The position numbers were made by a program, and so were the translations under genes. A model generated the notes under the pieces. That model searched no databases and was not told the origin of the DNA. It saw only the letters and a program-made list of their open reading frames with translations. 64,000 nucleotides of DNA from Escherichia phage Pu-Krd-SF1, in sequence record PQ249395; one strand, 5' to 3'. Positions 11,361-11,723 of this stretch are shown one piece after another. Positions within the stretch are counted from its first letter, which is position 1; every line of letters starts with the position of its first letter.

Positions 11361-11723
11361 ATGAAAGCATATCAAATTCTTGAAGGCACACATAAAGGTA
11401 CTATTTATTTTGAAGACGGTGCTCAAGCCCGGATTATTGTCTCTAAGACTTTTAAAGAAGACGCTATTGTAGACCCGGAAATTTTCTACGGTTTGCATGC
11501 CCGTGAAATTGAAATTGAGCAACAGCCTACAGTTAAAATTGAAGGTGGTCAACACCTGAACGTTAACGTTCTGCGTCGTGAAACTCTGGAAGATGCAGTT
11601 AAGCATCCGGAAAAATATCCGCAGCTGACCATCCGTGTATCCGGTTATGCAGTTCGCTTTAACTCTCTGACTCCGGAACAGCAGCGTGATGTTATCGCTC
11701 GTACCTTTACCGAGAGTTTGTAA
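11361..11723 (+). CDS. autonomous glycyl-radical cofactor (GrcA/YfiD-like)
   Basis: C-terminal glycyl-radical motif [25 protein letters not shown]; C-terminal ~60 aa appear host-identical. Confidence 0.85.

Follow-up and report, generated by a model that had tools for sequence, protein, structure and literature searches.

A T4-like phage gene for a glycyl-radical cofactor in which the 3' half appears to derive from Escherichia grcA by gene conversion

The nearest evolutionary parallel to the mosaic gene described here is found in cyanophages. Evidence of intragenic recombination between host and phage has been reported for psbA and psbD, host-like metabolic genes of T4-type phages (Sullivan et al. 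2006, PMC1484495). On the biochemical side, E. coli YfiD (GrcA) and its T4 homolog Y06I accept a glycyl radical from the activase of pyruvate formate-lyase (PFL) and rescue PFL that has been cleaved by oxygen, and T4 Y06I has been purified and assayed (Wagner 2001, as reported in PMC8683613). Residues 1-60 of YfiD are disordered and aid binding and activation; residues 61-127 duplicate the C-terminus of PFL and constitute the radical domain (PMC8683613). Nolan et al. 2006 remarked only on the Gly_radical match of the phage protein and guessed at a role in nucleotide metabolism. The T4 gene, vs.6, and its biochemical role are already known. In marker rescue and in insertion or substitution, replicating T4 DNA recombines with short homologous DNA that contains cytosine in the infected cell, a step like the one proposed below for vs.6. 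Those experiments use phage DNA cloned on plasmids, whereas the partner of vs.6 in nature would be a chromosomal host gene. To our knowledge, T4 is generally regarded as unrelated to its host at the level of nucleotides. The literature that could be searched gave no description of a vs.6 mosaic, its Escherichia origin, a Klebsiella counterpart or host tracking; Wagner et al. 2001 and the 2003 review of the T4 genome lie outside that scope and may remark on the amino-acid identity or on the mosaic.

We analyzed a stretch of 64,000 nucleotides from Escherichia phage Pu-Krd-SF1 (PQ249395), referred to below as the window. The listing of its open reading frames places an ortholog of vs.6 (Y06I), a GrcA (YfiD)-like autonomous glycyl-radical cofactor gene, at 11361-11723 on the plus strand. 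The gene starts with ATG and encodes a product of 120 aa that ends with the glycyl-radical motif (RVSGYAV, residues 92-98), in agreement with a preliminary description of this DNA. It lies between homologs of vs.7 and vs.5, and T4 vs.6 (NP_049730) has the same position, internal junction and E. coli-like tract. Nucleotide identity was 94.8% to T4 vs.6, the GrcA homolog that the preliminary description had pointed to, and 100% to the copy in phage Pu-Krd-SF5; judged by these identities, the window comes from a Tequatrovirus. The flanking open reading frames (10973-11353, the vs.7 homolog, and 11723-11944, the vs.5 homolog) had no Pfam match. The start codon of vs.5 and the stop codon of vs.6 overlap (TAATG), an arrangement that may put a constraint on the final codons of the tract. 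NrdD (29419-31245) and NrdG (32065-32535) are encoded in the same window, as previously pointed out. The nrdD gene is a single unbroken open reading frame of 608 aa with full-length NRDD and Gly_radical matches. In T4, nrdD (sunY) is interrupted by a group I intron; the nrdD of the window apparently has none.

The product belongs with GrcA/YfiD, and its two halves differ in how closely they resemble the host protein. It is a small (about 14 kDa) stand-alone protein with a terminal glycyl-radical domain of the RVSGY type, which is what defines GrcA/YfiD (TIGR04365, IPR011140). The Pfam Gly_radical match covers residues 60-101 (E 2e-18; 67 bits versus a cutoff of 22), and the closest solved structure is that of E. 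coli YfiD/GrcA (PDB 6OWR, E 1.9e-42). The C-terminal glycyl-radical domain of PflB/TdcE has the same fold and the RVSGYAV motif, and residues 697-759 of PFL align with the phage protein (E 6e-26). The whole-protein score for NCBIfam TIGR04365 was 158.3 bits, below the equivalog cutoff of 170, because the N-terminal half is divergent. RefSeq nonetheless names the T4 protein GrcA. BLASTP of the phage and host N-terminal halves alone, as single sequences, gave no alignment, whereas a profile alignment of the two N-termini (hhalign) gave a probability of 94.2% with E 1.1e-7 over 48 columns at 31% identity; the phage half is seven residues shorter. By the profile match, the N-terminal half of the phage protein and the disordered region of YfiD are distant homologs.

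The 3' half of the gene matches E. coli grcA and the 5' half does not. In a blastn search of 5,426 complete E. coli genomes, gene nt 179-363 (11539-11723) alone aligned, at 96.8% identity, and it aligned to grcA in all 5,426; the 5' half (11361-11538, plus strand) had no match in these genomes. When the two genes were aligned by codons, 84 of 180 nt (~47%) were identical in the 5' half and 174 of 180 in the 3' half. Residues 61-120 of the product were identical to residues 68-127 of E. coli GrcA at all 60 positions, a segment that contains the beta-strand, the Gly radical loop and the C-terminal helix. The expectation that the last ~60 residues would be those of E. coli GrcA with a different N-terminal half, and that identity to the host at the nucleotide level would be higher in the 3' half, was thus borne out.

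The mismatches to E. coli are confined to the end of the tract. All six lie within the last 37 nt, leaving a host-derived core at 11539-11686 (plus strand; 148 nt, to gene nt 326) without a mismatch to E. coli grcA. This core encodes the beta-strand, the glycyl-radical loop (Gly95 codon, 11643-11645) and the sequence that follows. A 156-nt core that reaches 10 nt beyond 11686, to 11696, was identical to E. coli-type alleles at 154 of 156 positions, and of the 22 positions at which E. coli and K. pneumoniae differ, 21 have the E. coli base in the window. The variable tail, which contains the 3' junction, is at 11687-11723 (plus strand), with mismatches at gene nt 327, 330, 351, 354, 357, and 358. 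Past the stop codon, homology to the terminator of E. coli grcA was absent. Compared with T4 vs.6, the window has two synonymous changes that are private to it, at nt 327 and 330. It also has C at nt 351, a base shared with L088, another of the phage sequences compared, and G at nt 354, which is common in E. coli phages; T4 has the E. coli bases. T4 has an Arg-to-His change at codon 73 that is absent from the window.

Base composition and codon usage also change within the gene. The G+C content was 46.7% at 11525-11723, in line with the earlier estimate of about 47% for the 3' ~200 nt, 48.1% at 11541-11723, 37.2% in the 5' half and 34.2% in the whole window. The value of the tract was reached by only 0.6% of 183-nt segments of the window, and the ten segments with the highest G+C were all in the tRNA cluster. 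The host-style codons that had been remarked upon are indeed concentrated in the tract (CTG five times, CGT five times and CCG three times) compared with the 5' half (none, one and one), and GC3 was 0.27 in the 5' half and 0.42 in the 3' half. The tRNA cluster (2896-4284) contains eight genes (Leu, Gly, Pro, Ser, Thr, Met, Tyr, and Arg), and its tRNA-Tyr stretch (3403-3493) has 90% identity with a tRNA-Tyr of E. coli plasmid NZ_CP015915. When all 64 kb were compared with the E. coli genomes by megablast, there was no match other than grcA and the tRNA region; most of the genomes had a second matching place besides grcA.

The change from phage-like to host-like sequence occurs at a sharply defined position. 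We used the maximum chi-square method with E. coli grcA and the Karamvirus gene as putative parents and found a break at 11537-11549 (plus strand; gene nt 177-189), at AAA ATT / GAA GGT GGT (maximum chi-square 79.4, permutation p<=0.0005). To the left of the break, 8 informative sites match E. coli and 66 match Karamvirus; to the right, the numbers are 38 and 1. The 5' half clusters with phage genes only. The junction coincides with the left edge of host-phage nucleotide homology, which begins at the codons for EGGQH, and this position fits conversion limited by homology. The identical 5' junction was found in T4, Mosigvirus, and Jiaodavirus.

The tract is closer to E. coli grcA than the grcA genes of other enterobacterial genera are. 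We set the scale of host divergence with grcA from eighty species representatives and K. pneumoniae, leaving out a K. aerogenes record with a frameshift. Citrobacter, Salmonella, Klebsiella, and Enterobacter grcA differed from E. coli at 13-29 of 183 tract sites, nearly all synonymous, and the phage copies differed at 2-6 of 183. Over the last 186 nt, identity to E. coli was 179/186 for the window and 182/186 for T4, compared with 172/186 between E. coli and Citrobacter. Nucleotide differences in this segment, in codons with the same amino acid and in codons that change it, numbered 24 and 5 between E. coli and Salmonella and 6 and 1 between the window and E. coli. A neighbor-joining tree of the 156-nt core grouped Escherichia, Tequatrovirus, and Mosigvirus in one clade in 285 of 300 bootstraps. 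By these measures the donor of the tract was Escherichia. In host grcA, divergence and composition were even across both halves; in the phage gene they were uneven. Because the host genes are not mosaic and the phage gene is, the direction was from host to phage. We rejected pflB/tdcE as the donor: in the same search, pflB was ~83% identical and grcA 94.8% identical to the Jiaodavirus tract. The window gene also had weaker blastn matches in E. coli, in the 60-80% band, which we take to be pflB and tdcE.

The E. coli-type tract is widespread and is not present in all T-even phages. About 500 phage records (T4, other Tequatrovirus, and Mosigvirus) were 95-99% identical to E. coli grcA over the tract; T4 has three differences from E. 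coli, and fFiEco06 and Mosigvirus RPN187 have two each. We examined 11 Tequatrovirus and Mosigvirus sequences in detail. Six of the last 24 coding positions were variable among them, with E. coli-type and phage-type bases mixed, and this patchwork in the last eight codons suggests that the 3' endpoints were variable. Other T-even phages lack the E. coli tract: Karamvirus, Krischvirus, and a group that we take to be RB16 (L101), RB43 (L103), and KP15 (L104). Jiaodavirus, with its K. pneumoniae tract, likewise counts against the presence of the same sequence in all T-even phages. The preliminary description had proposed a recent recombination with the host gene. Recombination is upheld by the breakpoint, the Escherichia clade and the direction; a private, single and recent event is not, given the number of phage records with the tract and the recurrence described below. 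The exchange is recent only on the scale of enterobacterial speciation and is not dateable in years.

Karamvirus has what looks like the unconverted state of the second half. The 5' lineage is shared with the window, and the genes of AS6 and L094 (presumably CC31) were identical to that of the window at 137 of 180 nt in each half. Their last 186 nt are AT-rich (3'-half GC3 0.21-0.29) and were 75-80% identical to any host allele sampled. In L101, L103, L104, Krischvirus, and T5-like phages, the domains are host-like in amino acids and have only 74-84% nucleotide identity. The T5-like Tequintavirus (L087 320-688, and L130-L156) also have a gene for a GrcA-like protein, 122 aa long, with the MKAYQ start of the T-even proteins; their radical domain is 72-76% identical to host alleles at the nucleotide level and has no host-like tract. 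These features hint at an old gene lineage shared between the two kinds of phage. In L101-L105, the domains were only about 80-84% identical in nucleotides to any host and have a host amino-acid signature that is genus-specific, LEDAVKH in L101 and L103 and LLDAVEH in L104. We assume that RB16 and RB43 are E. coli phages and that KP15 is a Klebsiella phage. An exception is the E. coli-type signature in Klebsiella phage phi1_146002. The domains of L101-L105 may be older conversions that have since eroded at synonymous sites.

In Klebsiella phages, the same junction is followed by a Klebsiella allele. Jiaodavirus has the 5' lineage and the junction found in the window, and its tract is the K. 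pneumoniae allele. Identity to K. pneumoniae grcA over the 156-nt core was 156/156 for Jiaodavirus contig L175 and 155/156 for KPV15 (L113, for which only the 3' part was used because the open reading frame as extracted was truncated). At the 22 positions by which the E. coli and K. pneumoniae alleles can be told apart, Jiaodavirus have 16-19 Klebsiella bases, and Tequatrovirus and Mosigvirus have 20-22 E. coli bases. The last eight codons in Jiaodavirus are uniformly phage-type. In total, 138 phage records were 90-99% identical to K. pneumoniae grcA; the best 40 of these 138 matches were about 94.9-97.1% identical, nearly all to phages named as Klebsiella phages.

More than one donor can be recognized within Jiaodavirus. 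Between L174 and L175 there were 3 differences over the 180 nt of the 5' half and 12 synonymous differences in the tract. At those 12 sites, L175 matched K. pneumoniae at all 12 and L174 matched a Raoultella metagenome-assembled genome at 10. The Raoultella-like allele was identical to L174 at only 148 of 156 positions of the core, which indicates that the true donor of L174 is unsampled. With E. coli, K. pneumoniae, and Raoultella-like tracts in different phages, host-to-phage exchange at this locus appears to be recurrent. The features of a psbA-type mosaic were all found here, namely a supported breakpoint with different nearest relatives on its two sides, a donor and a direction, and more than one event. 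Compared with cyanophage psbA and psbD, the vs.6 exchange concerns one defined domain with a fixed 5' junction and 99-100% identity to the donor; it involves enterobacterial hosts and T4 itself, and different phage genera carry the allele of their own host.

Not every host is tracked in this way. A comparison of all phages with the grcA genes of Salmonella and Enterobacter sichuanensis gave no record with at least 95% identity, and we therefore rejected the rule that every T-even phage carries the allele of its own host. Salmonella phage PSE-D1 (ON550260.1) has a K. pneumoniae-type tract (97.1%), and Salmonella phage pSe_SNUABM_01 (MN580668.1) has an E. coli-type tract (98.4%). The natural host of these phages isolated on Salmonella may be other than the isolation host.

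Based on these comparisons, we believe it very probable that the glycyl-radical domain of vs.6 has undergone repeated gene conversion from host to phage, limited to the stretch in which host and phage are alike in nucleotides. Codons 1-60 would represent an old, AT-rich phage lineage of grcA, and in codons 61-120 gene conversion by homologous (homeologous) recombination would have replaced the phage sequence with that of grcA from the chromosome of an Escherichia host. The converted stretch would extend from the first codon with host-phage nucleotide likeness (EGGQH) to a few codons before the stop. Fragments of host DNA would recombine with replicating phage DNA by means of the phage or the host recombination machinery, and after the first homeologous event the 150-180 nt of perfect identity would ease further conversion. 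A domain that exactly fits the PflB and PflA of the current host would be favored, or at least tolerated as neutral. In E. coli phages, the tract would be held close to the nearly invariant E. coli allele. Several observations go against this reading: Karamvirus and T5-like phages persist with a long-diverged domain, so an exact match to the host in nucleotides or amino acids is evidently not required; the Raoultella-like donor of L174 is an incomplete match; Salmonella and E. sichuanensis alleles are missing from the phages at the 95% level; and some phages isolated on Salmonella have tracts of the E. coli or Klebsiella type.

The main alternative is a single conversion in the ancestor of Tequatrovirus and Mosigvirus, followed by vertical or phage-to-phage passage, with no continuing exchange between phage and host in the window. 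If E. coli phages are considered by themselves, a single ancestral event plus recombination between phages would look much the same in the 11 sequences analyzed in detail. All 11 have a common 5' junction, the differences in the tail at gene nt 354, 357, and 358 are common to several phages, and the private changes of the window at nt 327 and 330 indicate that its own copy has drifted since acquisition. However, diversity in the tract core was about three times below that in the 5' half. The numbers of synonymous segregating sites in the 5' half and the tract core were 17 and 6 in E. coli phages, compared with 3 and 13 in Jiaodavirus (Fisher p=0.001), and the mean pairwise differences in E. 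coli phages were 12.3 in the 5' half and 2.4 in the tract core. Because E. coli grcA is almost invariant, low tract diversity in E. coli phages is expected if the tract mirrors the diversity of its donor. The mixture of E. coli-type and phage-type bases in the tail is as expected from variable endpoints, and several donors are demonstrable within Jiaodavirus alone. We regard a single ancestral conversion as unlikely, although it is the most serious competitor of repeated conversion.

Repeated conversion might reflect a standing hotspot of recombination at vs.6, at which strictly virulent T-even phages would time and again pick up the grcA allele of the current host. We put this forward as a tentative proposal, with somewhat less than an even chance of being correct. 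If it is true, the tract would be a molecular record of the recent natural host, sometimes at odds with the isolation host, as in the Salmonella phages with Klebsiella-type or E. coli-type tracts; fixation would be driven by selection for exact fit to PflB and PflA; and homologous exchange between T4 and the chromosome of E. coli would have a natural rate that can be measured.

Three other explanations of the mosaic are much less probable. It is very doubtful that the whole gene was taken once from the host and that its disordered N-terminal half then diverged rapidly while the radical domain was constrained. The distant homology of the phage and host N-terminal halves and the faster evolution of disordered regions at the protein level are in its favor, but synonymous sites should have diverged alike in both halves, yet identity jumps from ~47% to 100% within 12 nt, and the same 5' lineage is found with a diverged 3' half in Karamvirus and with a Klebsiella 3' half in Jiaodavirus. 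Transfer in the reverse direction, with E. coli and K. pneumoniae having obtained the 3' halves of grcA from phages, is still harder to credit; identity alone gives no direction, and nothing specific favors it. The host genes are uniform across their halves and follow host relationships, grcA is present in all 5,426 E. coli genomes, and it is in the phage that the tract is compositionally foreign (48% versus 34% G+C). A resemblance that arose without any transfer, through convergence or through purifying selection acting on codons or on the structure of the mRNA, has almost no likelihood: host grcA is highly expressed and codon-biased and its domain is almost invariant across Enterobacterales, but hosts with the same amino-acid sequence differ at the 13-29 of 183 sites given above, L101 and L103 have a domain identical in amino acids at only about 83% nucleotide identity, and each converted phage fits the synonymous variants of one host species.

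Contamination by host reads or chimeric assembly as the source of the tract has a negligible probability, for although one metagenome contig does pass from the phage gene into E. coli sequence, the tract of the window is in frame and is accompanied by phage-specific tail variants and downstream phage sequence, T4 (RefSeq NC_000866) has it as well, as do hundreds of isolates that were sequenced independently, and the T4 protein itself is reported to have been purified and assayed. That contig, L173 (OCHD01000040.1, 170,927 bp), is Mosigvirus-like; at 579-1160 the sequence runs on from the tract into the terminator of E. coli grcA and then eamB with 99.3% identity, and the contig ends ~1.3-2 kb away. 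We considered L173 as a longer host insertion extending past the stop codon, treated it as most likely an assembly chimera formed through the shared repeat of ~180 nt, and left it out of the statistics. For viromics, the shared repeat calls for caution, as it is long enough to give phage-host chimeras in metagenome assemblies.

The converted tract, which corresponds to essentially the whole structured radical domain of GrcA, is the part of the protein that must fit host PflB and be recognized by host PflA. The protein of the window differs from T4 Y06I at 5 of 120 residues, and on this similarity the installation of the radical and the rescue of PFL, established for T4 Y06I, may be extended to it. 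The host activase PflA would put a radical on the C-terminal domain, and the domain would replace the oxygen-cleaved C-terminus of host pyruvate formate-lyase. During infection, the protein would presumably sustain fermentative energy metabolism in the micro-oxic gut once the expression of host genes has been turned off.

Within a gene that is conserved among T4-like phages, a stretch of 150-180 nt has 99-100% identity with the chromosome of E. coli, and the corresponding stretch in Klebsiella phages is the Klebsiella allele. The locus is natural and easily assayed, and vs.6 could be used to measure gene conversion from host to phage. The tract may also mark a recent host and so be of use in host prediction. 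The mosaic suggests that the glycyl-radical domain needs to match the PFL of the host and that the N-terminal half is free to be phage-specific. On the reading of repeated conversion that we favor, vs.6 would be direct evidence of repeated, homology-based exchange of DNA between virulent phages and the chromosomes of their hosts, with a resolution as fine as a protein domain.
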